A stretch of 64,000 nt of DNA. Source: Escherichia phage vB_EcoM-RPN242. Positions 1,451 through 59,644 of the stretch are shown here, one piece after another. The notes under the pieces were generated by a model. The model searched no databases. It was not told where the DNA came from and saw only the letters and a list, made by a program, of their open reading frames with translations. The position numbers and the translations under genes are program-made. Numbering within the stretch: position 1 is the first letter of the stretch; every line of letters starts with the position of its first letter. The stretch lies in sequence record OL656110.1; one strand, written 5' to 3'.

Positions 1451-1951
1451 TCATGGATTAGAATCAATCGCCTTCCCAACAGATAGTGGAACCAGCTGTT
1501 GGAACTTGAAGGTCACTGTCGTCACCAGCTGAGGTACAGCCGCGTCTACGTCCACCAGTACGTTGTCCAAAGCAGTCGGGCGGGCTTCCTCCAGCACTAG
1601 AGTGAGGCCAATCGGTCGGTTGAGGTTATCCAGCAATTCAATGGTAATGTCCTTGCTGACAGGCAAATCCTTGCCGACGTTGCTGGTAATCCATTGGTGG
1701 ATCTGTAACCATGATTTCCAGTCCTCGTCTATAACGAAAGTAAATACGACGGGATCATAGGTTAAACGCTCTGAAGGTATAGAAACCAACACGTCACCAG
1801 GAGACGGACCATCGATGCCTTCGGAGTACACCCCTGGTATACTGAAGTCGTGGATGTTACGGGTTAGGAGTACAAGGTCTCCGATAGTCAGACGCCACTT
1901 ATCGGACGCCGCGAAATTAGGGTTTTCGTTCTTGAATTGTACGTTGGACAT
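1451..1951 (-). CDS. hypothetical (possibly structural) protein, 166 aa with the ATG at 1951
   Basis: Track ORF 1451..2254 starts at GTG; internal ATG (MSNVQFKNEN...) has AAAGGTG upstream. True start could be anywhere up to 2254. Confidence 0.4.
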   Translation of the reverse strand: MSNVQFKNENPNFAASDKWRLTIGDLVLLTRNIHDFSIPGVYSEGIDGPSPGDVLVSIPSERLTYDPVVFTFVIDEDWKSWLQIHQWITSNVGKDLPVSKDITIELLDNLNRPIGLTLVLEEARPTALDNVLVDVDAAVPQLVTTVTFKFQQLVPLSVGKAIDSNP

Positions 1952-2222
1952 AATAGCACCTTTGCTGTGGAGATATTTTGTGACCCTGATGCGCGGGATC
2001 AGTAGATTGTTGTTGGCATGCTCGATGCTCTTGTTTACGAGCTGTCGCATCTTTGTCACGCCAATAATTTCTGTTTCCGAACTCTGGAACCCAGAAGTGC
2101 GCACTGTACCTGTGACGTTGTCGGCCAGCGTTCCCACTTGTAACAAGGGTATGCTGGACATCATCGTGCAAGAGTTCCAGCCCTTCCAGAAGCTCGTACC
2201 TTTAGGTTGCTTTGATGAGAAC

Positions 2223-2630
2223 ATGAGCACCCTCAAGCCATACTGGAAGACCACAATTCCTCTCCTGCGGCATGGCGATGAAGGGAAGATTCCATACCTA
2301 TCAGCAAGTATTTATTACTCTCAGAACAACAGCATCATTATCACTTTTAATCCATCATTCCATGCCAAGCTGAAGCAACACATGGTTGGGCGACTGGATA
2401 CAACATCAGATATAATCGTGACGTTCAAGATCATGAATGACTCGGATAAACCAGTACGAATCGCAACTCAGGGTGTGTTCGTTAACAACGACGCGGTTGG
2501 AAATGGGATGAGTATCTTTGAAGTTAACCCAGGGGGAACGATCTTGATCAGACTGAGTAATGTGGGTGTGAACTCCCTGCTGTTGGATGGCATCGAACCA
2601 GTGGGAGTTCTTCCGGCGCGGGAGCACTGA
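2223..2630 (+). CDS. hypothetical protein, about 135 aa, on the opposite strand
   Basis: C-terminal two-thirds of plus ORF 1815..2630 looks protein-like (IIITFNPSF..., IVTFKIMNDSDKPVRIATQG...) while the overlapping minus frames are W/H-rich; start uncertain (2151 or 2223). Confidence 0.3.
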   Translation: MSTLKPYWKTTIPLLRHGDEGKIPYLSASIYYSQNNSIIITFNPSFHAKLKQHMVGRLDTTSDIIVTFKIMNDSDKPVRIATQGVFVNNDAVGNGMSIFEVNPGGTILIRLSNVGVNSLLLDGIEPVGVLPAREH

Positions 2631-3359
2631 TTACTTCAGCGCGTTCTTCAGATTATCGGAACCAATGCTGTTGATGACACCTCCGGCGCAGATATCTTTC
2701 GCCCACTCTGAGATCACGTTGGCAAAAGAGAAGTTAAGACACTTACCAACCATGTCTTGGATATGGGCTAACTCTGCTGCAATACCGTTCGTGATGTCCT
2801 GAGCAATAGAGGCTACTGATGCGACAGCAGTGTCGATGGCCTGAGTAACTTCAGCAGCCAGTGCCTGAATAGCATCAAGACCAGCACCGACGCCCTGAGC
2901 TACCAACTCAGCCAGCTCATTCATCTTGTTTGTGATAGTTGTGAGAACACTTTGCATGGTGTTGATCCACTGTTTGCCGAGGTTCTGAATAACCCCAAAT
3001 GCATTATTGATCAGATCACAGTTGTTCGGTTCTCGACCTATAGACTTCAGGGCGGACTTATACGACACAGATGTACCGATGCGGGAATATGCCTCGTTCA
3101 CTGACTGGTCGCCATAGTTGTTCAAAGTAGTGATGCTGTTGTTGGCTGAGTTGAACATTGCTGTAGATTCGTTGAGTTTGGCTGTAGTCAACCCACCTGC
3201 CGTCAGCGCTTCCTGAATCTGCGCATTTCCGGTGTTAGCCAGTGACGCTGTAGTCGCCTTACCACTGGTGATTAACCCCTGTGAGGCGCTGCTGAGGGAC
3301 GGGAGAGGATTGGTAAAGGCGTTGCCCTGTGATAGGGCGTCATAGATCTGTGCGTTCAT
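2631..3359 (-). CDS. late protein, Ala/Ser/Thr-rich, likely virion-associated, 242 aa
   Basis: Track start 3401 lies upstream of the late promoter; re-called to ATG at 3359 which follows GGGGGTATTTTCTT. Confidence 0.6.
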   Translation of the reverse strand: MNAQIYDALSQGNAFTNPLPSLSSASQGLITSGKATTASLANTGNAQIQEALTAGGLTTAKLNESTAMFNSANNSITTLNNYGDQSVNEAYSRIGTSVSYKSALKSIGREPNNCDLINNAFGVIQNLGKQWINTMQSVLTTITNKMNELAELVAQGVGAGLDAIQALAAEVTQAIDTAVASVASIAQDITNGIAAELAHIQDMVGKCLNFSFANVISEWAKDICAGGVINSIGSDNLKNALK

Positions 3360-3383
3360 AAGAAAATACCCCCATGGATGATG

Positions 3384-3394
3384 GGGGTATTTAG
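3384..3394 (-). promoter_or_regulatory. late promoter motif CTAAATACCCCC with inverted copy at the ribosome-binding site
   Basis: Minus strand reads CTAAATACCCCCATCATCCATGGGGGTATTTTCTT-ATG; 11-12 bp inverted repeat AATACCCCCAT / ATGGGGGTATT. Confidence 0.6.
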
Positions 3395-3608
3395 GGATCA
3401 TGGTAGTTTGTAAACGAAGTTGGACCAGAACTTACGAACAAACTTCTTGACATAAACCATTCGGTTGGCGTATTCCCCATCCTTCAGGTCATTGTAGGTC
3501 TCGATCCCTACCGCGCCCAAGAAGTACGCCGTGAAGATATAGCAGAACAGATTGATGACGACAAACATGATGTATCTCCGCTGTGTGTACTCAATTATTT
3601 ATGGTATG

Positions 3609-5489: not shown

Positions 5490-5514
5490 GGTACAACCCT
5501 CGGATAAGTAGACG

Positions 5515-5546
5515 GGGCAATAATACCTCTCGCCCCGTTATTGAAA
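5515..5546. repeat. 32-nt intergenic repeat, copy 1 (gggcaataatacctctcgccccgttattgaaa)
   Basis: Identical 32-mer recurs at 5775-5806, exactly 260 nt away; contains a hairpin. Confidence 0.7.
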
Positions 5547-5549
5547 CTG

Positions 5550-5750
5550 TTATCCTTCTTGTTCTTCCCAACCCCATTCATCTTCCCAAGACTGGCGAGG
5601 GGTCTTGCCTGCTTCGTAATCATCACGCCAGGCGTCGGCGTCGGCGGCTGAACCGCCCTGGCTTTTCGCGACTTTGCATAATACGTCGTGCCACTCACGG
5701 AAAGTGGAGTTGGCGACTGTGGTGTTTACAGAATCTTCTTTCAGGCTCAT
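5550..5750 (-). CDS. hypothetical acidic, Trp-rich protein, 66 aa
   Basis: Track start is TTG inside repeat copy 2; ATG at 5750 has GAGGAAATCACA upstream. Confidence 0.4.
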   Translation of the reverse strand: MSLKEDSVNTTVANSTFREWHDVLCKVAKSQGGSAADADAWRDDYEAGKTPRQSWEDEWGWEEQEG

Positions 5751-5774
5751 TGTGATTTCCTCGATTAATAGAGA

Positions 5775-5806
5775 GGGCAATAATACCTCTCGCCCCGTTA
5801 TTGAAA
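5775..5806. repeat. 32-nt intergenic repeat, copy 2
   Basis: Identical to 5515-5546. Confidence 0.7.
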
Positions 5807-5813
5807 TGTTCTT

Positions 5814-7286
5814 TTAGTTCAAGACATATTTGATCAGTCCACAATTCCAAATCCTGACCAACCCGGCTTCGGTTGCTAACTGGCTTTCTGTTTTGCCTTC
5901 TACGTCATACCCCATGCGAGCAAATGAACCTTTTCTGAAACCGAATTTGTGCTCACGCATAAATGTGCCAGGCTTGTGATATTTGTAGTCTGGCTTCTGT
6001 ACTTCCTCTTCTATGAATCCGTGGGATAGGTAAATGTTGGACAACCTGCTTACAACACACCTATCCCCAAAGGAATAGATTTTGGTGTCGGCAAATTTTC
6101 TTCTGAAGTGTGAAAGAAGTTTACTGAATGCCCCGTGGCAATCATTAGAGGCAAATCTGACTAATTCCAGGCCATCTTTCCTTTTAGTGAATAGCATCAC
6201 GGCTTGTATGACCCCACTCTTGTCAATTAACGATAAATGGTGGGTGGAAGAAACGGAACCTTGTATGTGGTGGTTGTCTAAAAACTCCCTCAAGCCGCTT
6301 ATATTTCCCCAAACGACTTTGTGTTGGCGAGCATATGACGCAGGCGTTTTAATGCCAAGTTTAGCTTTCAGAAGAGATTTGACCACTTCCTGTTTCTCAA
6401 CCCATTCATCTTCCCAGATGTGGATCAACTGGATACCCTGAGATTCACATATTTCAGTCTTTTCCAGGTGATAATATTTCTCTTTAAAAACTTCTGAATG
6501 CCAGTACAGGCCATTAAATTCAATCGCCAATTTGTGTTCAGGGCAATAGATATCCAGTTGTTTACCGGATAATATACTGTAATCAGAAACAGTGTTTACA
6601 ACTCCCATTGAGGTGAGAAACTCGGATATTTCCTTTTCATAAGAAGATTTCTTGTTCCTGATAGAACCATTGCTGAACAACGCACGTTTTAGTATGTTCG
6701 AGTTTTTCATAGGGTTGTCAACACCATAACGTTCTTGTAACGTTGCCAACGCCTTCTCCCTCACACCAGGTAATTGTAGTGTGGAGCAGCTTCCGTATTT
6801 GGATATATTCGAAGTCTCTATGGCTTTCCGACCAATCCCACCTTTACACATAGAAACCTGATAACATTCTTCAGAACAATATGTTCTGTAATCTTTATTA
6901 TTGATATAAAAGTTGGTTTCCTTGGAACACACCGGGCATATTTTCACGGTTCTATTGTACAGCCAAGCTGTGACTTTACAAGCCAAATCTTGTAGGGTGT
7001 TGTGGGTATTGGCGAACGCTAAAAGGTCTACATTGATGTGCTTCATAAGCAGTTCAGATTTGCATTTTTGGATATCCAATTTGTTGTTCTTGGTAAACAT
7101 ATATTTGTAGAAAAATTGGCGATATGATTCCTCGTCAGACAATTCATTCACTGCTTCAAGGAAACCTTCCGGGAGGTTCTTTAGGGTGTTCGATGCGAAG
7201 GTCTTGCAAGCATCTGAACAAAATTTCTTATCTTTCCTGGATGCTTTGAACTGTTCATGGCAGACACTACAGATTACCTGATACAT
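5814..7286 (-). CDS. putative free-standing homing-endonuclease-like protein with Vsr/DUF559-type nuclease motif and two Cys-pair zinc-finger-like elements
   Basis: LAIEFNGLYWHSE matches the Vsr-family (F/I)xDGxxWH signature; CSVCHEQF...CSDAC and CPVCSKE...CSEEC pairs; sits next to the capsid gene as segD does in T4. Track start 7382 runs through the terminator hairpin; re-called to ATG at 7286 (GGAGGAG upstream). Confidence 0.55.
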   Translation of the reverse strand: MYQVICSVCHEQFKASRKDKKFCSDACKTFASNTLKNLPEGFLEAVNELSDEESYRQFFYKYMFTKNNKLDIQKCKSELLMKHINVDLLAFANTHNTLQDLACKVTAWLYNRTVKICPVCSKETNFYINNKDYRTYCSEECYQVSMCKGGIGRKAIETSNISKYGSCSTLQLPGVREKALATLQERYGVDNPMKNSNILKRALFSNGSIRNKKSSYEKEISEFLTSMGVVNTVSDYSILSGKQLDIYCPEHKLAIEFNGLYWHSEVFKEKYYHLEKTEICESQGIQLIHIWEDEWVEKQEVVKSLLKAKLGIKTPASYARQHKVVWGNISGLREFLDNHHIQGSVSSTHHLSLIDKSGVIQAVMLFTKRKDGLELVRFASNDCHGAFSKLLSHFRRKFADTKIYSFGDRCVVSRLSNIYLSHGFIEEEVQKPDYKYHKPGTFMREHKFGFRKGSFARMGYDVEGKTESQLATEAGLVRIWNCGLIKYVLN

Positions 7287-7335
7287 AATTATTCTCCTCC
7301 ATATGGTATCTAGTATAACCTGTTCGATAATATGA

Positions 7336-7363
7336 ACAAATAAAAACCCCGCCGAAGCGGGGT
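7336..7363 (-). terminator. rho-independent terminator after the capsid gene
   Basis: Minus strand: hairpin CCCCGCTTCGGCGGGG followed by TTTTTATTTGTT. Confidence 0.7.
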
Positions 7364-7390
7364 TTGTCAGGGTTAAGGACAACTATTCGA

Positions 7391-13931: not shown

Positions 13932-13987
13932 TTCGATGCTCTCTCAGTAAAATCGTTCCATTTTAACCCGCGAGAGACCATTGAAAT

Positions 13988-14003
13988 GCCCTCCGAAGAG
14001 GGC
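13988..14003 (-). terminator. hairpin after the sheath gene
   Basis: GCCCTCTTCGGAGGGC on the minus strand directly after the sheath stop; weak U-tract. Confidence 0.45.
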
Positions 14004-14013
14004 ATGGGGTAAA

Positions 14014-15909
14014 TTAAGAAGCGGCTACGATACCACCACCGGATTCGATCTCACTGAATTCCATGTCTGGACGCACGGAAGCAAAATCAAGATACACCCA
14101 ATTTATACTGTACTCTGGTTTCAGCCAGATACCCGCGACCATGGTGTTGGCTGCGATAACATCAGCGGTGTTGTTGTCCTCGTCACACTTCACCATCCCG
14201 TCATAGATCGCGCCCATGTTGGCCAACTGGCGGATATATGGGCGGACAGCGTTGCTGAACAACCCACGAGTGAATGCATCGTTGTTCTCACCAAGGTAGT
14301 ATTTGGCGATGGCTGCGATATTCTGCTCTGCCATAATGAACAGACCACGAACGTTGATGCGGTCGAACGCAGATGGGCGGGTCAGGCCAGTCTTGTCGCC
14401 GTACAACACGATGCCTTCGTTGGAGAAGGTGACGATGCTGTTGATCTGGTTGCGATACAGCACAGCACGCTCATCAGAAGACGCAGACCACGCCATTCGA
14501 TTATAGTTGTTGTATTTACCACGGTTGTGGAACGCCGGAGATTTGTAGATACCCGCGATTTCAATGCTTCGCGCCCAAACACCTGCGGTGCCGCCACAAG
14601 CCGGAATCCAACGCATTTTGTCGTTGTACTTGTCGTACACATACGCCCAGTTGTCATCCATGAAGAAGTAGGAGGAGTCGCGAACAAGGCTTTCACGCCA
14701 GGCCACAACATCATCCATCTCACGGCCACGGTTTCCGACGACCGTATCGCGAAGAGGAGACACGAAGGACACTGTGTCTTTACGCTCGGTGGACAGGTCG
14801 ATCAGTGCCTGCTGCTCAATCAGTTCTTCACAGAAACCGAACACTGGCTTGGCATCATACGCTTCGGCGTTGTTCAGTGCCTGGATAGCCGCAACACGGT
14901 TCCCAGTGTAATCGTCTACACCACCTTCGAGTTCAATCACACCAGCAGCCAGGGTAGTGGCGAAGGTGTACACCCAATTTGAGGTGCCGTTGATCACGTC
15001 TTTGAAGTACGCATTGGATCCATCAGATTTCTTAGAACCCTGAGCGGTCTGCACCAGTTCATACTTCTCGATGATCGTACCGGAAGCACCAACAGTTGTG
15101 ACGGCAGCGGTGGCAGTCAGACCATTCGCGTCTGGAACAATCGCAGTCGCAGCCTGAGGACCGATTGCTTTGTGAGTGACGGTGACGGTGTTGGACTTCA
15201 CGACAACAGAAGAATACACGTCAGACAGGGACGTCAGCGCGGTTCCGATCTTTGTCGCCAGAGTCGCCGGGGTGTCAGCGTCAGTGTACGCCACGGCTTC
15301 ACCAGCAACAGAGATGGAACCAGCAGCGGTGGCAGTACCGGATACAGAGATACGATCAACCTGACTAACAGCGCCAGAAGAGTCGGTAATGCGACCTACT
15401 TTGTCAACGATGGCGATATGGTACTCGCCATCCTGTGGAGCATATGCGAAGTTGTTACGGAATTCCCAGGTCGGGAACAGCGCAGCATCACAGATGTTCA
15501 CAGCAATGTCGTTACCCAGAGAGCCAGCATAGCGGCCTGTCCAGGTAATAGACGCAGATGGGGACGCAGTTTCGAAGTCTAGTTTGTTGCGGATAAGGAT
15601 TGCAGTCTGACCTTTGGTTACAGCGTTGCGTGCCGCCGGACCGACCACACGGGTCACCCATGCAACAGAGCTGTAAGACAGGAAGTCAGCAATCACCAAG
15701 AAGTCGGTGGCAGTTGCATCGTTTGGCTTGAAGAATTTCTTCACCAGACCAGTTTCGCCACCAGTGACCAACACAGGGAGTTCTGCTTCACCCCATTGGA
15801 ATTTGCCGACAGTCGCACCCTGAACAACAACGGATGGAGACGTCTGAAGCGTGGCATCACGCTCAGTCCACTGTACGGACGGCGCAACGCTGAAGCTTTG
15901 AGTTGCCAT
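14014..15909 (-). CDS. tail sheath protein (gp18-like)
   Basis: 631 aa from ATG 15909 (track start 15942 is TTG); follows terminase as in T4; conserved-looking C-terminal domain. Confidence 0.8.
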   Translation of the reverse strand: MATQSFSVAPSVQWTERDATLQTSPSVVVQGATVGKFQWGEAELPVLVTGGETGLVKKFFKPNDATATDFLVIADFLSYSSVAWVTRVVGPAARNAVTKGQTAILIRNKLDFETASPSASITWTGRYAGSLGNDIAVNICDAALFPTWEFRNNFAYAPQDGEYHIAIVDKVGRITDSSGAVSQVDRISVSGTATAAGSISVAGEAVAYTDADTPATLATKIGTALTSLSDVYSSVVVKSNTVTVTHKAIGPQAATAIVPDANGLTATAAVTTVGASGTIIEKYELVQTAQGSKKSDGSNAYFKDVINGTSNWVYTFATTLAAGVIELEGGVDDYTGNRVAAIQALNNAEAYDAKPVFGFCEELIEQQALIDLSTERKDTVSFVSPLRDTVVGNRGREMDDVVAWRESLVRDSSYFFMDDNWAYVYDKYNDKMRWIPACGGTAGVWARSIEIAGIYKSPAFHNRGKYNNYNRMAWSASSDERAVLYRNQINSIVTFSNEGIVLYGDKTGLTRPSAFDRINVRGLFIMAEQNIAAIAKYYLGENNDAFTRGLFSNAVRPYIRQLANMGAIYDGMVKCDEDNNTADVIAANTMVAGIWLKPEYSINWVYLDFASVRPDMEFSEIESGGGIVAAS

Positions 15910-15947
15910 AATCTTATTCCTTCTCTGTAGAGTTTCGCTCAATTTGA

Positions 15948-21865: not shown

Positions 21866-24800
21866 TTATGCCAGAGCAATCAAACGGAAATCTTTGAATG
21901 ACGGCGGTGCTATGCGGTTGCCTCTGACCAGCAGGCGGATCTTCAGACCAACGAAAGGATTGGTGCTGTCTACAGTCTTGTCATACTCATATTCGAAGAA
22001 TGCAGAACCGTCATTGACCAGAGGGGATGTCGGTGTCACAGTTTCCCATGCCACATTATCCATCTCCTGACCTGCGCGCAGCAGTTTAACCTGCACAGTC
22101 ATTGAAGACTGAGAAGGTAGCATCGCGCCGAAGTATTGCTTCAGAGTGGTGCAAGGGTTATCGAATCCGATATCCTTGGTCACATAGCTGAACACATCTT
22201 CAAACGGATCCACACCGTAGGTGTTGAAGATGATAGTGAAATCATCACCGTCGATCATTGGAGCCGTGTAGACATTACTCTCGTTGCGAGTCATGGTTGC
22301 ACGAACCTGGAAGTCGCCCACCTGACGATAGATACCTTCCGTCGGCAGAGACACGTCCGTATCGGATTCGAACTCAACCCAATCAGAGAATGAGTTGGAG
22401 GTCGCATCGCGATAGCGGTATTCCAGTTTCAATACAGATCCTTCTAGGGCTGAATTGGTGACGCTTGCGTAGAACATGTCTACCAAGTAGTTGCCTAGGA
22501 AAGAAGCCGCTTCACCACCAATCTGACCGTCGGAGTCGGCGTTGGAACTCAGAACGAATTTGAACGTCGTGAACGTCGCATCAGTCACAGTGTGTTGAGC
22601 GTTCAGTTGCTCAGGAGTGAAACCGCAACCACCCGTCAACCCAGACAGAGTAACACTTTCACCCGCAGTCAGGCCATGCCCCGGAGCGTACACAGTAACA
22701 GTTGAAGAACCGTTGACACATTTCACGGTGTTCAGACCCAGAGGGCGGATCTTCGGACCGACTTTAGCATCGAAGGTCACGATGTTTGAACCAGCGGAGA
22801 AGTTACAGCGATACACACGGAACTTCATATCGGCAGTCTGGTTTGGAGTCCAGGTCGTACCATTTGAAGATGTGAAGAACACGCCAGTGTACGGCTGTTT
22901 GGCAATGAACTCGTTGGTCAGCAAGTTCTTCTTACCCATCTCTGCGATGTATGCGTTGTAGTCCTGAGTGTTGGCCAAGAGAACAATCGCGAACTCAGTC
23001 TGCGCCTGCAGATACACAGGATAATCAAACTTGAACATCGTCGGCACAGAAGAGTCTGTGGAGATGGAAACTTCTGATGGATTCAGAGTCTTACGAGTGA
23101 CGACAGTCGTCGCTGGCAGACCATTGCTCATCTCACGGATTTCCAGAGTGATCGGGATATCACGGGACTTGGTAGAGAAGAACACTTCAATACCTTCGAT
23201 GTATTCGCCGCCGATATTGGTGGCAACCATGAAGGACTGGGCGATAGGATCTTTCCACTTCGCGACTTCAACCGTCTCTGTTTTGTTTTCCGTAGACTTG
23301 GTCGCAGTGTATCCCAGGACGCGAGTGTTGACATAAGTCTTCTGGATGCCCTGTTTCTTGCCGAAGGACTTATGAACAGCCTCGGCATTGGTCAGGGTAT
23401 CATCAGCAGACTTGCTATCCACAGGACTGTCAGTCAGACGGAAGACGTTGTCGCCCGTGTTAAACTTGATAGTCTCGTTCTGAGGAACCGCAAACACACC
23501 TTTGATGTTACCGTTGGCATCAGTGTTCAACGCACCACCCAGTACACCACCGTTTGGGGTACAGTACGCGCTCACATCACGCCCAGAGAAGAACGGATAC
23601 ACACGAGTAAATGGACGCAGGCCTGTGGCTTCGAAGTTGATGTTCGTTTTGCGCATGTATGGGATAACCTGCGTTTCAACGATCTGCTCGCCAGTCAGGG
23701 TAGTGGTCGTCTTGTCGGTGTACGTGTACGTGGTGACGTCACGGGTAGACACAGTCGTGCGGTAGCGATAGCCCCACCATACACCACCTGCACCATGCGG
23801 TTCCCACACACGCTCAGACACAGACACAGTACGCCATGTGCCATACACAGAACCTTCTTTGATCGCACCACGGGTGTTGATCGTTTCGTTGACCACACGT
23901 GGGGTGACATAGTAGTTCTCAAACCAGTAATCAGTAGTTGGGTTCAGCTTCAAGAAACCTTCCCAGTTGAACACCGCATACGGGTTCACGTTGATGGTCG
24001 TGGTTGCATAGTCCTGGCGGACAGAGATCTCACGGGTGTAGTTGCATACAACCATGCCATCCTGAACGTTGTTCCAACCGACTGGCGTCAGGTCAATCGC
24101 GTTCTGCTGAACAAACGGGCGTAGGCGACCATTGTCAGTGTCGATTGAACCCACCCAGTCTGCAGACAAATCGTCGATCAGACGGAAGTCTTTGAACGGG
24201 TCTGCTGCGATACCGTTCTTGAAGCGCGGGTTGCCAGTAATTGGATCGAACACCTGTTGTGACATCGCCGAGGATTCCAGCTGAGACAGTGAGGTGTAAT
24301 ATTCGACATTGGAGATACGGGTCTCCAGTTTACCGATATCGCGCATCGTGTAGCGGCGGTTGTCGATAGTACGAATCTGGATGTCGTCAATGTTGGCCGT
24401 GTATGGTGGGATCATCAATTCATACAGGCGCATGCCGTTGTCTGGGATCGCAGGGGAAGCCAGGTTGTTGGAACTCACACCACGAGCAACGTTGAACACG
24501 CCGTTGTCTGCCAGATACACAGCATCAATACGAGGCAGATAGTACTCTGCATCTAGGATGATCGCGGTGTTCGGGCGAACCATGTCCGTGTCAGACGCTC
24601 CGCTGGTGATCTTGGGACGGAAGTCCAGACTGTCGGCCAACCCATACACAGTACCAGAACTGGATGAAACATAGTTCGGGATGTCTGGGTAGTTGATGGA
24701 CGAATAGGAGTCCGCTGTGAAGAAATCACCAGAGCTGTGAGCGAAATACTGATACACCACCGTGAACGTCCCTGAAATGGCTCCTGTGGACGATATGAGG

Positions 24801-26704
24801 TTAGAAAGGTAGTATGCAGCATCACGCTGACCGCCGTCCAGAGTGAAGTTAGAGGTGACGTCAGCGCCATTTGCGTTCTTCACGCTGATCAGCTTGTAAC
24901 CATCATGGTTCCCAAGTTGTGCGCTGGCCGCCGCAGTAAACGTCACAGTCTCGGTGACTTCGGTAACAGTCTTGGTCTTGATCGTCGCTGTGGTGCGGAC
25001 CATCAATGCCAACAGGTTGATAGACTGGTTGGCGTACCCCGCGCCCAGGGAAATCTGTAGTGCTGAACCAACCGGAGTACCAGCCAGGGACAGTCCCGAA
25101 GAGATATCAAACTGAGCTGCAGTGCCATCTGCCTTCGCTGCGGAGTACAGTGAAAACTCAGGGCTGAAGCTGTAACCCAGAGGAGCAGAAATTGAGCCTG
25201 CACCAGCGGCGTTCAACGTGATCTTGTTTGACCGCAGGACAGTGTAGTTGATGTCGATGGTGCCTGTAGGTGCTAGAGTCTTCACACCAAATACAGGCAG
25301 AGGGAAGATCAGGTCAATCGCCGAACTCTGGCTGAACTGATTGGACTCCAGTTCGCAAGAGAACATCGTTGTACCGCTTTCTTCATAAGCGACTTTGGTC
25401 ACCGTGCCCATGTCCCCAGTCACAACCAGGTCGCGCATATACAGACGGAATTCAGTACCAGAGCGCTCTGCCGAAATCAACAGGGCGGTGGCCTGCACAT
25501 CGCTGGATGCGTTCAGGAACTTGTAGCGGATTGTGCGGGAGACAACCGGAACCCCTTTGGAGTTCTTGGACACCAGATAGTTTCCAGTCGAAACAGCCAC
25601 AGGGTTGTTGTTCAGGATATCAGTGTCACGGGCTTTGTCAATTATGACCAGCTCTTCGCCGAGGTTTTCGATACGACGACCACGAACGTAGGAAATGCCT
25701 GGCTTCATAACCGCCACGAATTTGCTTTCATCACCGCCTTCAGCCGGAGTGTAAACGCCGCCGTTGTTGTTCTGTTTCAGATGTTCACGCAGGTCGATCT
25801 GGTGAGTAGAGACGTTGTAGTCACCATTGGTCTCATAGGTACGCTGAGCCATGGCGTCTTCGAGGATGTTGTACGTTGACTGGGTGACCATGGACTGAAT
25901 GCGACCGTCTTTCACCTTCGCCAGTTCGACGAAGTCGGCCACTTCTTCATCATAACCGTAGCGAGACAACACGAGGTCGACGCGCAGGCGATGCGCACCA
26001 GGGGCTTTAGAGTTCGGAGTACCCTGAGCATTGGAGAACAGACTTTCATCTTCTGCTTCGGTCACGATTGTTTCTGTAACTTTGAAGCCAATGCGGTGAG
26101 ATGTAGAGTTCGATGCGTTGTCTACGATCAGAGTGGCTGGTTCAACATCCAGGAACATACCACGAACGAAATAAACACCCTTTGTCATGCGAGCGACAAT
26201 CGAACCACCAACAGTATCGGCCACACCATAGCCGACACGGATGAAGTTATCGTTCACGTCATAGGTGTTGAAATATAGATTGTCGCCAGCTTCGAAACCG
26301 TCTGAACTACCACTTTCAGTCATCTCTAAGATGGCATACATTGTATCTGGCTCAGCTGGATAACGTTCCAAGGACAGGACGCGTGCTTTCGCATTGTTGT
26401 CCTTGCCCAGAACATAGAGTTCGGAGATACCTTCCAGATCAGTGAACTCACTACCACCAGCCAGAGTGAACTTCATGGACACAGCAGTGTTGGTGATCGT
26501 TAGGCCGCCGGGGATAACCATTGAACCGTCTTTGAACAGATGGTTGCCAAGTTTCTCCAGTTGATCCTGGAAGATGGTCTGCATCTGGTTCAGTTCACGC
26601 GTCTGAACTTTGATAGGTGCCGGACGGAATAGGATGCGCGAAAAACGCTTCTCTGGATTCCAGTCATCCCAATATGGGCGGCGGTTGAGGTTCATTTCTT
26701 GCAT
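21866..26704 (-). CDS. very large virion structural protein, about 1612 aa (tail or baseplate associated)
   Basis: Single uninterrupted frame; ATG at 26704 (GGAG upstream) after a CTAAATATCTC motif; sits between tailspikes and neck genes. Confidence 0.7.
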   Translation of the reverse strand: MQEMNLNRRPYWDDWNPEKRFSRILFRPAPIKVQTRELNQMQTIFQDQLEKLGNHLFKDGSMVIPGGLTITNTAVSMKFTLAGGSEFTDLEGISELYVLGKDNNAKARVLSLERYPAEPDTMYAILEMTESGSSDGFEAGDNLYFNTYDVNDNFIRVGYGVADTVGGSIVARMTKGVYFVRGMFLDVEPATLIVDNASNSTSHRIGFKVTETIVTEAEDESLFSNAQGTPNSKAPGAHRLRVDLVLSRYGYDEEVADFVELAKVKDGRIQSMVTQSTYNILEDAMAQRTYETNGDYNVSTHQIDLREHLKQNNNGGVYTPAEGGDESKFVAVMKPGISYVRGRRIENLGEELVIIDKARDTDILNNNPVAVSTGNYLVSKNSKGVPVVSRTIRYKFLNASSDVQATALLISAERSGTEFRLYMRDLVVTGDMGTVTKVAYEESGTTMFSCELESNQFSQSSAIDLIFPLPVFGVKTLAPTGTIDINYTVLRSNKITLNAAGAGSISAPLGYSFSPEFSLYSAAKADGTAAQFDISSGLSLAGTPVGSALQISLGAGYANQSINLLALMVRTTATIKTKTVTEVTETVTFTAAASAQLGNHDGYKLISVKNANGADVTSNFTLDGGQRDAAYYLSNLISSTGAISGTFTVVYQYFAHSSGDFFTADSYSSINYPDIPNYVSSSSGTVYGLADSLDFRPKITSGASDTDMVRPNTAIILDAEYYLPRIDAVYLADNGVFNVARGVSSNNLASPAIPDNGMRLYELMIPPYTANIDDIQIRTIDNRRYTMRDIGKLETRISNVEYYTSLSQLESSAMSQQVFDPITGNPRFKNGIAADPFKDFRLIDDLSADWVGSIDTDNGRLRPFVQQNAIDLTPVGWNNVQDGMVVCNYTREISVRQDYATTTINVNPYAVFNWEGFLKLNPTTDYWFENYYVTPRVVNETINTRGAIKEGSVYGTWRTVSVSERVWEPHGAGGVWWGYRYRTTVSTRDVTTYTYTDKTTTTLTGEQIVETQVIPYMRKTNINFEATGLRPFTRVYPFFSGRDVSAYCTPNGGVLGGALNTDANGNIKGVFAVPQNETIKFNTGDNVFRLTDSPVDSKSADDTLTNAEAVHKSFGKKQGIQKTYVNTRVLGYTATKSTENKTETVEVAKWKDPIAQSFMVATNIGGEYIEGIEVFFSTKSRDIPITLEIREMSNGLPATTVVTRKTLNPSEVSISTDSSVPTMFKFDYPVYLQAQTEFAIVLLANTQDYNAYIAEMGKKNLLTNEFIAKQPYTGVFFTSSNGTTWTPNQTADMKFRVYRCNFSAGSNIVTFDAKVGPKIRPLGLNTVKCVNGSSTVTVYAPGHGLTAGESVTLSGLTGGCGFTPEQLNAQHTVTDATFTTFKFVLSSNADSDGQIGGEAASFLGNYLVDMFYASVTNSALEGSVLKLEYRYRDATSNSFSDWVEFESDTDVSLPTEGIYRQVGDFQVRATMTRNESNVYTAPMIDGDDFTIIFNTYGVDPFEDVFSYVTKDIGFDNPCTTLKQYFGAMLPSQSSMTVQVKLLRAGQEMDNVAWETVTPTSPLVNDGSAFFEYEYDKTVDSTNPFVGLKIRLLVRGNRIAPPSFKDFRLIALA

Positions 26705-26744
26705 TTTGATGCTCCATCGATAGGTGCCATTATAGAGATATTTA

Positions 26745-26755
26745 GTATACAACCA
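26745..26755 (-). promoter_or_regulatory. late promoter variant CTAAATATCTC
   Basis: About 40 nt upstream of ATG 26704. Confidence 0.5.
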
Positions 26756-32108: not shown

Positions 32109-32140
32109 TTGAAAATACCCCATAAAGGATTTGCCAATAT

Positions 32141-32151
32141 GGGGTATTTAG
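32141..32151 (-). promoter_or_regulatory. late promoter CTAAATACCCC with inverted repeat
   Basis: CTAAATACCCCATATTGGCAAATCCTTTATGGGGTATTTTCAA-ATG; 12-bp arms. Confidence 0.6.
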
Positions 32152-32185
32152 TCTGAACTAATAAATTTATAAACAAATGTATAGA

Positions 32186-32220
32186 GAAACCCCGCCGAAG
32201 CGGGGCTAGTTTTTATTTGT
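32186..32220. terminator. hairpin CCCCGCCGAAGCGGGG with T-run on the plus side
   Basis: Same hairpin core as at 7347 and 34851; located just past the end of 32227..34776. Confidence 0.55.
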
Positions 32221-34776: not shown

Positions 34777-34802
34777 GATAATACCCCAAGAATGACCAAT
34801 AT

Positions 34803-34813
34803 GGGGTATTTAG
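34803..34813 (-). promoter_or_regulatory. late promoter CTAAATACCCC with inverted repeat
   Basis: CTAAATACCCCATATTGGTCATTCTTGGGGTATTATC-ATG. Confidence 0.6.
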
Positions 34814-34848
34814 TCTGAACTAATAAATTTATGAACAAAGTTATAATA

Positions 34849-34872
34849 AGAACCCCGCCGAAGCGGGGTTTA
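34849..34872. terminator. hairpin CCCCGCCGAAGCGGGG
   Basis: Third copy of this hairpin core; just past gene end 34876. Confidence 0.55.
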
Positions 34873-47670: not shown

Positions 47671-47681
47671 CTAAATACCCC
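47671..47681 (+). promoter_or_regulatory. late promoter CTAAATACCCC with inverted repeat, plus strand
   Basis: CTAAATACCCCATGCAAACCAGTGTGGGGTATTT-ATG. Confidence 0.6.
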
Positions 47682-58060: not shown

Positions 58061-58434
58061 AAATTCAAATCCCTCGCGATGCTGTGGCTGTTGCGATCGA
58101 CTACACCGGAAACGCCAAGCACATTACTGCCGTGCGCCTGATTCCTGAAAAGAACTGCGTCATCCCTCAGTTCCAGCTGAATGCCAATCCGTCGTCCAAA
58201 GACTTCGGAAAGTGGTTGCAGGCTGCTCCGTTCCGTACCCAGACGAACGCTCAGATGTTCATCTCGGGTAAGACCCACACTGCAGCCCGTCTGTGGTTCG
58301 TGACCGCTGACCGTCGCTTTGTCGATATGTGGGAACGTCCGATGGGGTTCGTGAAGCCGGAAGATATTCAGCTGGCTCCTGAGCCTGAAGCTGTGGCTCC
58401 TGAAGAGGAAGCGAAAGATGCATCATTTATCTAA
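58057..58434 (+). CDS. hypothetical protein, about 125 aa
   Basis: ATGA overlap with the upstream stop; track ORF 57922..58434 is over-extended. Confidence 0.45.
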   Translation: MKIQIPRDAVAVAIDYTGNAKHITAVRLIPEKNCVIPQFQLNANPSSKDFGKWLQAAPFRTQTNAQMFISGKTHTAARLWFVTADRRFVDMWERPMGFVKPEDIQLAPEPEAVAPEEEAKDASFI

Positions 58435-59644
58435 AATGCCGACGGGCTATACGCCTCCGGCTGAATGGAAGTACCCGATTGACCTGGCTGTTGATTATCG
58501 CAAGCCTGAGAATCGCATGTACTTGCTCAAGGCTTGGGTGGAGGCGCTGTCCTACACAGAAGAGCACAACCAGCAGATGCGTCTGATGGACTATGCGATC
58601 GAAGTCACTGAAGGCATCAGCCTCGAACAGAAAGTCGAGCGCAAGATCTGGATGGCATTCCTGTGGGGTTGTTGCTATAACGCCGTCGGGCCGTGGACGA
58701 TCTACAGTGAGTTCCCTGTGCCGCCTCAGTCTAAGGAAGAGATGCAGCGCTTCTCTGATTGGTATAATCTGAACTTTGAACGCATGCGATTCGATACCGA
58801 CTGTCGCTACCGCAAGTCCAAGATGATCCCGTGTGTTCAGTCCTATATTGACTGGCTGGCTGGCCGTACTCAATATGACGCTTTCCGTGGGATGTTGGTG
58901 TGCATCGATAAGACAGAACAATTCACCCAGCTGTGGGACACGGCGATGTCCTGGAAATACTTCGGTCGCCTGAGCGCCTGGAACTTCCTGGAAGCCCTGA
59001 ACATGGTATTCGGAAACGAATACACCATTGACGTCCCTGGCTTCATGCTGCGTGATCGTGATGGAAGCGAGTCCAACCGTAATGGCGCGGCGTTCTTGTC
59101 CAACCGTGACGATTGGGTGACTAAACACGGGAAGAAAAAGATCAACGGTTGTCCTATCACGGATGAAGAGTGTGACATCCTTGAGGCTGACCTTGAGCAG
59201 GCGTTCCAGGATTGTGTGGCTGAGTTCGGGCACCTGACGTTCATCAACCGTCTGAACTTTGAAACCTCCGGTGCTTGTTGGCTGAAGAAATTCTTCCGAC
59301 TGAAGAATACCCGTTACATCGGGTGGGACGCAGAGCGTACCTGGGATGAGATAGACTACATGGAACGCGTCTGGCCTGAATACTCCTGCGCAGCGCTCTG
59401 GGAAGCCCGTTCGCTCTGGCTGCCAGATACCCTGTTGTGCGAAAAGGCTCCTGCAGGGCACGTTCCAGGCGTCCAGAAGTGGAAGATGCCTGTGTTCTTT
59501 GAGACTGGTGTTCCTCTGCACATCTGGCATCTGCAAAAGGGTACGCGTTGGGAGCCTGACCAGGTGTATCGAGAATTGGGTAAACCGAAGATTGATAAAC
59601 CGAAGTCCAACAGCGTCAACCTCATGGCACTCTTGAAACGCTGA
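58418..59644 (+). CDS. hypothetical 408-aa protein, candidate base-modifying transferase by context
   Basis: GAGGAAG upstream; no motif recognised by eye; assignment rests on neighbourhood with the kinase only. Confidence 0.5.
   Translation: MHHLSKMPTGYTPPAEWKYPIDLAVDYRKPENRMYLLKAWVEALSYTEEHNQQMRLMDYAIEVTEGISLEQKVERKIWMAFLWGCCYNAVGPWTIYSEFPVPPQSKEEMQRFSDWYNLNFERMRFDTDCRYRKSKMIPCVQSYIDWLAGRTQYDAFRGMLVCIDKTEQFTQLWDTAMSWKYFGRLSAWNFLEALNMVFGNEYTIDVPGFMLRDRDGSESNRNGAAFLSNRDDWVTKHGKKKINGCPITDEECDILEADLEQAFQDCVAEFGHLTFINRLNFETSGACWLKKFFRLKNTRYIGWDAERTWDEIDYMERVWPEYSCAALWEARSLWLPDTLLCEKAPAGHVPGVQKWKMPVFFETGVPLHIWHLQKGTRWEPDQVYRELGKPKIDKPKSNSVNLMALLKR

Follow-up and report, generated by a model that had tools for sequence, protein, structure and literature searches.

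Which strand codes, and for what, has to be established where two long open reading frames of opposite strands run face to face over several hundred nucleotides. This is the situation at one end of a 64,000-nucleotide stretch of the Escherichia phage vB_EcoM-RPN242 (OL656110.1; this 64-kb stretch is referred to as the window), which represents an Agtrevirus-like Ackermannviridae phage and has 99.6% identity with Escherichia phage AV101. The geometry given in a preliminary description of the locus is exact: the minus ORF spans 1451..2254 (267 aa, GTG start), the plus ORF spans 1815..2630 (271 aa, ATG start), and the two overlap over 1815..2254, which is 440 nt. The palindromic CATG at 2222-2225 is also present, with an in-frame ATG on both strands (Met82 of the plus protein and Met11 of the long minus ORF), and the plus stop TGA (2628-2630) indeed abuts the minus stop of the next gene (TTA, read as TAA, 2631-2633). 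Relatives share this convergent arrangement at 2630/2631, with 0-1 nt between the stops.

The locus very probably consists of two ordinary divergent phage genes with start codons 28 nt apart (1951/1980), such that the long overlap is a shadow and not double coding (Table 1). Gp3, a T4-type protein, would be read leftward from ATG 1951 to 1451, and a 216-residue lipoprotein precursor of the DUF7424 family would be read rightward from GTG 1980 to 2630, each being served by one Shine-Dalgarno site within the 28-nt spacer. The gene pair is already known, as public records of related phages annotate both genes correctly; both coding sequences are found in the records of AV101, Ag3, CAU_YEP3, CBA120, Coodle, 0507-KN2-1, Marshall and Sajous1.

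Table 1. Positions of the genes, signals and open extensions at the locus (numbering of the window)
Feature	Position	Strand	Remarks
gp3, tail-tube terminator / tail completion and sheath stabilizer CDS	1451..1951	minus	166 aa, ATG 1951, stop included
DUF7424 lipoprotein precursor CDS	1980..2630	plus	216 aa, GTG 1980, alternative ATG 1989, stop included
Divergent intergenic spacer	1952..1979	none	28 nt, both Shine-Dalgarno sites
Predicted signal peptide and lipobox (MTLMRGISRLLLACSMLLFTS followed by Cys22)	1980..2045	plus	Cys22 codon 2043-2045, +2 residue Arg23
Very probably non-coding shadow extension of the minus ORF	1952..2254	minus	the 101 codons preceding the gp3 ATG, opposite the lipoprotein gene
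Very probably non-coding shadow extension of the plus ORF	1815..1979	plus	the 55 codons preceding GTG 1980, opposite gp3
CATG palindrome	2222..2225	none	internal Met82 codon of the lipoprotein; start on neither strand
Abutting convergent stops	2628..2633	both	TGA (lipoprotein, plus) and TAA (DUF7217 gene, minus)
Candidate internal late-type promoter (ATAAATAC, 1 mismatch)	2308..2315	minus	lies within the lipoprotein gene and precedes the gp3 start by 357 nt
Late-type promoter core (CTAAATACCCCC), nearest exact copy	3387..3398	minus	just upstream of the probable true start of DUF7217, ATG 3359

Limits of the two genes

The product of the minus gene is matched by the tail tube family phrog_45 (8.8e-35), and a phmmer search against the PDB finds the T4 gp3 tube terminator (PDB entry: 9mkb) with E = 7.7e-6, residues 130-252 of the ORF being aligned with residues 30-162 of gp3. 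Since residue 30 of T4 gp3 corresponds to residue 130 of the ORF, the N terminus of gp3 is placed at Met102. The homology with T4 gp3 extends over most of the length of the protein (166 aa here, 176 aa in T4). The genomic arrangement around T4 gp3 differs; in the phage studied here, the gene adjoins uvsY and an exonuclease gene and is divergent from the lipoprotein gene. The alignments of distant gp3 homologues likewise start only at ORF residue ~94-113, a protein of ~166 aa is annotated in the Ag3, CBA120, Limestone-type, Taipeivirus, Marshall and Sajous1 records, and the same limits are given for Coodle and 0507-KN2-1. By these three lines, namely the T4 gp3 alignment, the distant homologues and the annotations, the gp3 start is ATG 1951, and not a codon near 2224 as had been suggested. 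Over the gp3 region, the minus frame is free of stops in every relative, and the ratio of synonymous to nonsynonymous changes favors the minus frame. The orthologue in phage Sajous1, gp168, is a virion protein, detected with eight spectra by MS in CsCl-purified virions (PMC10892097).

The plus gene was previously thought to start at ATG 2223, but the conserved protein spans the 81 codons upstream of this position, and its true start is GTG 1980 (or ATG 1989). GTG 1980 is kept in all aligned genera; ATG 1989 is missing from Kuttervirus. The product matches Pfam PF24199 (DUF7424, 8.9e-57) and phrog_3832 (1e-94), and these matches start 143 to 81 codons upstream of 2223; the DUF7424 score is 192.5 bits, compared with a gathering threshold of 27 bits, and covers profile positions 2-196 of 196. 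When compared by tblastn, the whole 216-residue product is conserved from residue 1-3 onward in 288 Ackermannviridae records, and the lipoprotein is core to the family. The plus frame of this region is free of stops in every relative, and a 651-nt coding sequence is annotated in AV101, Ag3 and CAU_YEP3 (as 'lipoprotein') and in Marshall (as 'putative conserved lipoprotein'). The 81 residues that are dropped by a start at 2223 include the signal peptide, the invariant lipobox cysteine Cys22 and the invariant Cys54 and Cys77. In the vB_CECAV_050 record, a shorter plus coding sequence is called from ATG 2151, in the 3M record only the C-terminal 102 aa are called, and in the phiEa2809 record the lipoprotein gene is omitted; the signal peptide is therefore lost from these records.

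The spacer between the two genes carries AAAGGTG as the Shine-Dalgarno site of gp3 on the minus strand and GGAGA (1969-1973) as that of the plus gene, and the Marshall record has one annotated ribosome-binding site per gene in this spacer. No substitutions are found in it when compared with phages having only 82% overall identity. A 1-nt indel (28 versus 29 nt) occurs in Ag3, CAU_YEP3 and Coodle, so that the phase between the two long ORFs is shifted in these phages. For an RNA gene at the junction, there is no Rfam match at E ≤ 1, and there is no tRNA in the region. The proposal of two divergent genes with facing 5' ends is borne out, but the junction lies ~250 nt to the left of the CATG at 2222.

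Origin of the open upstream frames

Third-position periodicity is uninformative for the choice of strand, because both frames share their wobble positions; the strands were discriminated by second-position variability, by the counts of synonymous and nonsynonymous changes and by stop counts. The compositional cue of the preliminary description, with the minus frame looking real below about 2150 and the plus frame above about 2250, is reproduced by a codon-usage model for which 23 long ORFs from other parts of the window served as the training set: the log-likelihood prefers the minus frame as far as ~2140, and from ~2110 onward it prefers the plus frame. As a gene limit this switch is misleading. 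Its margin over 1980-2140 is small, the minus frame being favored by +3.9 versus -1.5, as compared with ~±40 for unambiguous segments, and the signal misleads because the signal-peptide and N-terminal region, with the lipobox, has an atypical codon composition.

This switch at ~2110-2140, together with the in-frame ATGs of both strands that share 2222-2225, is what speaks for an arrangement in which the minus gene starts near 2224, the plus gene starts near 2223 and the 5' ends meet at the CATG. Such an arrangement is already refuted by the comparative sequence data and is left with virtually no probability. The 81 plus codons upstream of 2223, which encode the signal peptide, Cys22, Cys54 and Cys77 and are spanned by the DUF7424 and phrog_3832 matches, are conserved as protein in 288 phages; on the other strand, the minus frame 1952-2224 is interrupted by stops in five of six relatives and is put out of phase in Ag3 by the 1-nt spacer indel, and T4 gp3 and the distant homologues align only from Met102. 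The preliminary description had named homologues over the full 267-residue minus ORF as evidence against two genes; such homologues are not meaningfully found, as distant relatives match the gp3 part only. The N-terminal 101 codons of the minus ORF have no match at all in distant relatives, and in close relatives they are matched only as a second, frame-broken piece, owing to the nucleotide conservation of the antisense gene.

It is most improbable, although not quite to the same extent, that the overlap is genuine, with an extended gp3 (from GTG 2254, ATG 2224 or ATG 2050) and/or a longer plus protein (from ATG 1815) being made besides the canonical products. Both frames are open in the window, in AV101 and in vB_CECAV_050, the envelope of the phrog_45 HMM begins at ORF residue 62, 40 residues upstream of Met102, and the two extensions together have a shuffle probability of ~0.025. 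The open extensions are, however, confined to the window and its kin of at least 98% identity, and they are closed in Ag3, at 93% identity. The minus extension is open for 120 codons only in the three genomes named above, compared with 16 codons in Ag3 and CAU_YEP3, 9 in CBA120 and Marshall, 4 in 3M and 1 in Vibrio K476, with the in-column stops in five of the six relatives; the plus extension has plus-frame stops in three of six relatives and in Ag3 and CAU_YEP3 is open only for the 8 codons upstream of the start. The relatives thus do not keep both overlapping frames open under purifying selection. Moreover, substitutions in the extensions track the codon structure of the other strand, no Shine-Dalgarno-like sequence was noted at the alternative starts in an unsystematic look, and a longer plus protein would bury its own signal peptide. 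Antisense ORFs that are as long or longer are common in the window: 11 opposite-strand ORF pairs (of at least 100 aa) overlap by at least 440 nt, the largest overlap being 1110 nt.

An overlap of 440 nt does not exceed what is expected by chance in this genome. When the codons of the two real genes are shuffled synonymously, the observed antisense openness has P = 0.089 for the minus extension and P = 0.28 for the plus extension, and the antisense frame through the lipoprotein gene has a median open run of 65 codons. The sharing of wobble positions by the two frames, together with the intrinsic scarcity of stops in the antisense frame, accounts for the open upstream frames; each frame happens to stay open through the antisense of its neighbor, generating two face-to-face ORFs of ~270 codons. 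This is in agreement with the properties of shadow (antisense) ORFs, which are long stop-free frames opposite a real gene, in the wobble-sharing frame, unconserved and frequent in the genome, and which classically make the strand ambiguous when a sequence is read ab initio. The twists here are that two shadows run into each other head-on, each extending one real gene into its divergent neighbor, and that the codon-usage scoring is tilted to the wrong strand by the signal-peptide region.

Transcription across the locus

Many starts in the window are preceded, at a distance of 25-45 nt, by the late-type promoter motif. The nearest exact copy on the minus strand, upstream of the DUF7217 gene, gives a context for how gp3 may be transcribed. 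In some annotations, the 5' end of the DUF7217 ORF itself is probably placed too far upstream. The lipoprotein gene is surrounded by a minus-strand block, in which it is the only gene of the opposite strand, and late transcription toward gp3 probably runs antisense across it, because neither an exact late-promoter motif nor a convincing terminator is found between the promoter at 3388 and the lipoprotein gene. The ATAAATAC site within the lipoprotein gene is conserved in five enterobacterial genera. Near-matches to the late-type promoter occur at chance frequency and the synonymous-site conservation at 2308 is not exceptional, and this site, like GTAAATAC at 1740 on the plus strand, therefore counts as no more than a weak lead. 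The family-specific promoter cores that were derived, CTAAATAcc and TTCAATAA-N12-TAtaAT, have no exact copy between 1400 and 3380, no promoter is recognizable upstream of 1980, and scans for sigma-70-type promoters and intrinsic terminators gave nothing relevant, the counts being at or below shuffle expectation. The T4 late promoter TATAAATA was rejected, as it has 2 copies in 64 kb versus 1.2 expected and none near the junction. A bidirectional terminator hairpin at 2620-2645 (a stem_loop in the Ag3 annotation) was also rejected, with z = -0.7 to -1.4, no U-run and no conservation in CBA120. No transcriptome study was found in the literature searched.

The DUF7424 lipoprotein and its possible role

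The plus protein is a predicted lipoprotein precursor of the Lgt/LspA/Lnt type, having a bacterial-type signature in its sequence with the signal peptide MTLMRGISRLLLACSMLLFTS-C22 and a lipobox of the form [LVI(F)]-[ASTV]-[GAS]-C. At position -3 of the lipobox, this protein has Phe where most relatives carry Leu. Among 22 diverse members of the family, Cys22 and Arg23 do not vary and the lipobox is mostly L-[TV]-S-C, and the N-terminal lipobox cysteine is present in all 28 distant DUF7424 representatives inspected. Across 83 sequences, Cys22, Cys54 and Cys77 are at least 90% conserved, and Cys54 and Cys77 probably form a disulfide bridge. The protein is a typical full-length member of DUF7424/PHROG 3832, whose hallmarks are the lipobox cysteine, two further cysteines, an N-D-(T/S) motif and an LS(D/N)VG motif. 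The mature protein of ~194 residues is predicted to adopt a compact fold, alpha/beta plus beta-sandwich, for which no informative structural relative was found. A characterized function for DUF7424 was not found either: the family is a DUF in Pfam, has 'unknown function' in PHROGs and is not mentioned in the literature searched, and the protein has no PADLOC and no NCBIfam match. An Ackermannviridae review makes no mention of lipoprotein, promoter, superinfection, transcript, secondary receptor or spanin.

The genomic positions of DUF7424 homologues offer a clue. In four independent P2-like prophages, the DUF7424 gene lies directly downstream of the CI/S24 repressor gene, on the same strand, which suggests, without proof, an envelope-acting superinfection exclusion function; in a Mu-like prophage, it lies just past the tail-fibre genes. 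By analogy with Llp of phage T5, an envelope-acting conversion or superinfection-exclusion function is tentatively taken as the most likely role, with rather low confidence. T5 Llp is a phage lipoprotein that is made early in infection; from the periplasmic side it binds FhuA, and it prevents both superinfection and adsorption to the debris of lysed cells (PMC9586334). The features shared with Llp, and with Cor of T1/phi80-type phages, which are superinfection-exclusion or lytic-conversion lipoproteins, are that the gene lies here amid late and structural genes of a virulent phage and that the homologues in temperate phages occupy sites typical of conversion genes expressed in the lysogen; homology to Llp or Cor was found neither in sequence nor in structure. 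The known primary receptors of Ackermannviridae are polysaccharides, so that there is no obvious target protein for an exclusion lipoprotein.

The alternative that the lipoprotein is a component of lysis (an o-spanin or unimolecular spanin) or of the virion or its assembly is unlikely. Like o-spanins and u-spanins, it is predicted to be of the outer-membrane type, its gene is embedded among the structural genes gp3 and DUF7217, and it belongs to the core genes of a family that is strictly virulent. An o-spanin is a small lipoprotein encoded beside or within the i-spanin gene, and a u-spanin is a lipoprotein with a C-terminal transmembrane helix; the lipoprotein ends in ...GIEPVGVLPAREH, with no C-terminal transmembrane segment, its C terminus (...SLLLDGIEPVGVLPAREH) has no hydrophobic helix and is modeled as a strand, and there is no adjacent or embedded i-spanin partner, the neighbors being gp3 and DUF7217. 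O-spanins are also short, unlike this protein with its predicted compact fold of ~194 residues. The homologues are found in prophage immunity operons beside CI and not in lysis cassettes. Against a virion component, the orthologue gp167 is absent from the virion MS list of Sajous1, in which both neighbors, gp166 and gp168, are detected (PMC10892097); this is negative evidence from one virion proteome. The 'gp214-217 ferrojan operon' of Sajous1 (PMC10892097) was considered as the orthologous locus and rejected, as gp214 is a 795-aa protein elsewhere and the true orthologues are gp166-168.

Returning to exclusion, a wider reading is possible but still more doubtful, namely that DUF7424 is a previously unrecognized, widespread family of envelope lipoproteins, with its own fold, that excludes superinfecting phages or protects the progeny from adsorption to debris. 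P2-like and Mu-like phages may express it from immunity or moron regions, and virulent Ackermannviridae may keep it as a core gene, where its antisense position within the late transcription unit could be a built-in temporal off-switch.

The finding on the coding strand itself is of little weight, being a textbook shadow-ORF situation; it does teach that signal-peptide regions can mislead composition-based strand calls and that some deposited records truncate or omit the lipoprotein gene. The lipoprotein is the only mildly interesting part of the locus. It may reasonably be regarded as a candidate for a new exclusion or conversion factor of phages, and such a role, if true, would be relevant to the design of cocktails with therapeutic Ackermannviridae phages.

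Gene limits at the divergent locus

The long face-to-face open reading frames reported in the preliminary description are present, with an overlap of 440 nt, and the TGA stop of the plus ORF (2628-2630) directly abuts the stop of the next minus ORF (TTA at 2631-2633, TAA on the minus strand). There are also two genes with facing 5' ends, as claimed, but their junction, which had been placed at a CATG, is misplaced by about 250 nt. Public records have two non-overlapping genes at this locus, and both genes are already annotated in the records of related phages: the start codon of the 'tail completion / gp3' CDS corresponds to position 1951, and a 651-nt plus-strand CDS, named 'hypothetical protein', 'lipoprotein' or 'putative conserved lipoprotein', corresponds to 1980..2630. 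The region shares 99.6% identity with Escherichia phage AV101 and 82-93% with Ag3, SKML-39 and the Limestone-type Dickeya phages (Ackermannviridae, Aglimvirinae). The gene order exonuclease <- uvsY <- gp3 / -> lipoprotein / <- DUF7217 is common to Agtrevirus, Limestonevirus, Kuttervirus and Taipeivirus records; the records of Miltonvirus 3M and Erwinia phage phiEa2809 shorten the lipoprotein gene or leave it unannotated, and in Vibrio phage K476 a homing endonuclease replaces DUF7217 as the right-hand neighbour. In several deposited genomes the DUF7424 (lipoprotein) gene is shortened or missed, with loss of the signal peptide and lipobox.

Residues 30-162 of T4 gp3 (tube terminator, PDB 9mkb, 176 aa) align to residues 130-252 of the minus ORF, which places the N-terminus of gp3 at M102, being ATG 1951, and the matches of gp3 homologues from distant Vibrio, Delftia and Ralstonia phages begin only at residue ~86-113. 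No homologue meaningfully covers the minus ORF over its full length; its first 101 codons match only as a separate second piece in close relatives, as would be expected if the antisense gene were conserved at the nucleotide level. On the plus strand, the matches of Pfam DUF7424 (8.9e-57) and phrog_3832 (1e-94) span residues 80-270 and 59-270 of the long ORF, and in tblastn 288 records conserve the 216-aa product starting at 1980 from residue 1-3 through to its C-terminus, with identity as low as 26%. GTG 1980 is kept in all aligned genera, and ATG 1989 is absent from Kuttervirus; a GGAGA stands 6 nt before the GTG.

Features of the locus and its surroundings, with related loci in other genomes
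Feature	Strand	Position	Remark
Minus ORF	minus	1451..2254	267 aa, GTG start
Plus ORF	plus	1815..2630	271 aa, ATG start
gp3 (tail-tube terminator)	minus	1451..1951	
Spacer		1952..1979	28 nt
Lipoprotein gene	plus	1980..2630	
CATG		2222-2225	in-frame ATG on both strands
DUF7217 ORF	minus	2631-3401	256 aa
522-aa ORF	minus	5814-7382	
CTAAATAcc(cc)	minus	191, 3388, 9684, 15952, 20229, 26739, 32145, 34807, 38075, 41940	hairpin at 3388, 32145, 34807, 38075
CTAAATAcc(cc)	plus	47671, 48166, 52125	hairpin at 47671
TTCAATAA-N12-TA(t/a)(a/t)AT	minus	4516; 5510-5550; 5770-5810	
TTCAATAA-N12-TA(t/a)(a/t)AT	plus	42205, 42844, 49680, 54783, 59869, 62649	
Direct repeats, ~35 nt		about 5521 and 5781	GGGCAATAATACCTCTCGCCCCGTTATTGAAA on plus strand
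Paired upstream regions, ~45 nt	minus	32120-32190, 34780-34850	TTGTT[T/C]ATAAATTTATTAGTTCAGACTAAATACCCCATATTGG
ORF pair	plus / minus	58418-59644 / 58427-59536	overlap 1110 nt
ORF pair	plus / minus	13981-14982 / 14014-15942	overlap 969 nt
ORF pair	plus / minus	23372-24124 / 21866-26752	overlap 753 nt
Short DUF7424 call, vB_CECAV_050		L004:2352-2831	
Short DUF7424 call, Serratia 3M		L008:1834-2142	
Unannotated DUF7424, phiEa2809		L009, about 1480-2163	
Bacterial tandem/ankyrin-type DUF7424		L023:346-2118 (GCA_963611245.1)	also P0138, P0139

Coding strand of the upstream extensions

The junction at CATG had been proposed from composition, and a coding-versus-shadow codon log-likelihood reproduces this switch, scoring higher for the minus frame until about 2140 and for the plus frame after that point. 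The margin over 1980-2221 is small (+3.9 versus -1.5, compared with about ±40 in unambiguous segments), and the lipoprotein's signal peptide and Cys/Leu/Arg-rich N-terminus are encoded in this segment; the compositional cue is real, yet misleading. Over 1980-2221 stops occur in the plus frame of none of six relatives and in the minus frame of five, whereas over 1815-1951 the minus frame is free of stops in all six and the plus frame is interrupted in three. For five of these relatives the syn:nonsyn ratios agree with this assignment; Ag3, which has few substitutions, gives a tie between the frames over both segments. The least-variable codon position falls at coordinate mod 3 = 0 in gp3 and at mod 3 = 1 from 1980 on, the change that a switch of strand at the spacer should give. 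The spacer itself has no substitutions versus phages at 82% overall identity, yet Ag3, CAU_YEP3 and Coodle differ in it by a 1-nt indel that alters the phase of the long ORFs with respect to each other. Counted upstream from the true starts (minus, ATG 1951; plus, GTG 1980), the minus and plus frames are open for 120 and 73 codons in the window, AV101 and vB_CECAV_050, 60 and 42 in Coodle, 16 and 8 in Ag3 and CAU_YEP3, 9 and 30 in CBA120 and Marshall, and 1 and 20 in Vibrio K476; in Serratia 3M the minus frame is open for 4.

The two long frames share wobble positions, and the antisense frame is stop-poor. An overlap of 440 nt is not unusual: 11 opposite-strand ORF pairs (each ORF at least 100 aa) in the window overlap by at least this length, the largest by 1110 and 969 nt, and when synonymous codons of the real genes are shuffled, open runs as long as those seen arise with P = 0.089 and P = 0.28. 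The three very long pairs in the table are presumably likewise shadow ORFs, open by chance opposite real genes, and illustrate the stop-poor antisense frames of this genome. The observation at 1451-2630 is accurate but ordinary, and its interpretation was half right.

Predicted transcription signals and neighbouring genes

De novo k-mer enrichment yields a late-type core, CTAAATAcc(cc), which precedes many starts by 25-45 nt and is probably the late promoter core of the phage family, related to T4 TATAAATA; it also yields TTCAATAA-N12-TAtaAT elements, which look like host-type (early) promoters. Five of the late cores are followed by a hairpin, AAATACCCC pairing with GGGGTATTT immediately ahead of the ATG, which allows folding of the 5' UTR back on promoter-derived sequence. 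The two direct repeats hold a host-type element on the minus strand, and the paired upstream regions, near-identical before two different genes, look like a duplicated promoter/leader module.

Between 1400 and 3380 there is no exact copy of either element. On the minus strand the nearest late core, at 3388, precedes the DUF7217 gene, and no convincing terminator was found between this core and gp3, so that gp3 may be reached by read-through, with transcription crossing the lipoprotein gene in antisense. A one-mismatch late core at 2308(-) is kept in five genera; its conservation is not statistically compelling. The DUF7217 ORF is probably over-extended: the Pfam match begins at residue 15, the gene is annotated at 729 nt in Ag3 and CBA120, and the longer ORF takes in the late-type motif CTAAATACCCCC (3387-3398) and a hairpin, both a short way before ATG 3359 (MNAQIY...). 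The longer form is annotated in AV101 and vB_CECAV_050. Further along, the Cys-rich N-terminal motifs of the 522-aa ORF, together with its low-GC patch (0.37-0.44 versus about 0.48 around), suggest an inserted mobile endonuclease-like gene.

The predicted DUF7424 lipoprotein

At its N-terminus, MTLMRGISRLLLACSMLLFTS-C22-R, the lipoprotein has a signal peptide and then a lipobox, and C22, R23, C54 and C77 are invariant across 22 relatives. Under the established '+2 rule', the Arg at +2 would send the protein to the outer membrane by the Lol pathway. An exhaustive profile search gives 85 cluster representatives (E <= 1e-3); the 28 inspected are of ~185-370 aa, with the lipobox Cys present in every one, and DUF7424 is found in all 10 subjected to the Pfam scan. 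Family-wide, C22, C54, C77, N153 (within an N-D-T/S motif) and S193 are near-invariant. The AlphaFold model, calculated from a deep alignment, is confident (pLDDT 90.4, pTM 0.85) and has alpha/beta elements followed by beta-strands. NCBIfam and PADLOC models do not match the lipoprotein, and the literature searched contains no mention of the DUF7424 family.

In four independent P2-like prophages, DUF7424 shares a strand with the CI/Peptidase_S24 repressor, lying directly downstream of it and opposite the Ogr/GPA early operon; by analogy with P2-like phages, this would be the lysogen-expressed immunity operon. A Mu-like Halomonas prophage has it in a 'moron' position, after the tail-fibre genes and separated from them by one opposite-strand hypothetical gene, and in another genome it lies next to an S24 fragment, UmuC and an R-M system. 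Chromosomal copies also exist, including ankyrin fusions; some of the bacterial lipoproteins are tandem pairs and some carry ankyrin repeats fused at the C-terminus, in a context that seems not to be prophage. Mass spectrometry of virions of Kuttervirus Sajous1 detected gp166 (DUF7217), thereby a virion protein, and gp168 (gp3), with 8 spectra each, and gp167, the lipoprotein orthologue, is not in that list (PMC10892097). Taken together, the prophage contexts and the virion data make the lipoprotein look like a non-virion, envelope-located factor useful in lysogens.

The best-known analogue of such a factor, by likeness in role and not in family, is T5 Llp. This lipoprotein attaches to the receptor FhuA on the periplasmic side and prevents both superinfection and adsorption to debris (PMC9586334). 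An Llp-like role for the DUF7424 lipoprotein may be put forward tentatively, as a candidate that is on balance somewhat doubtful.
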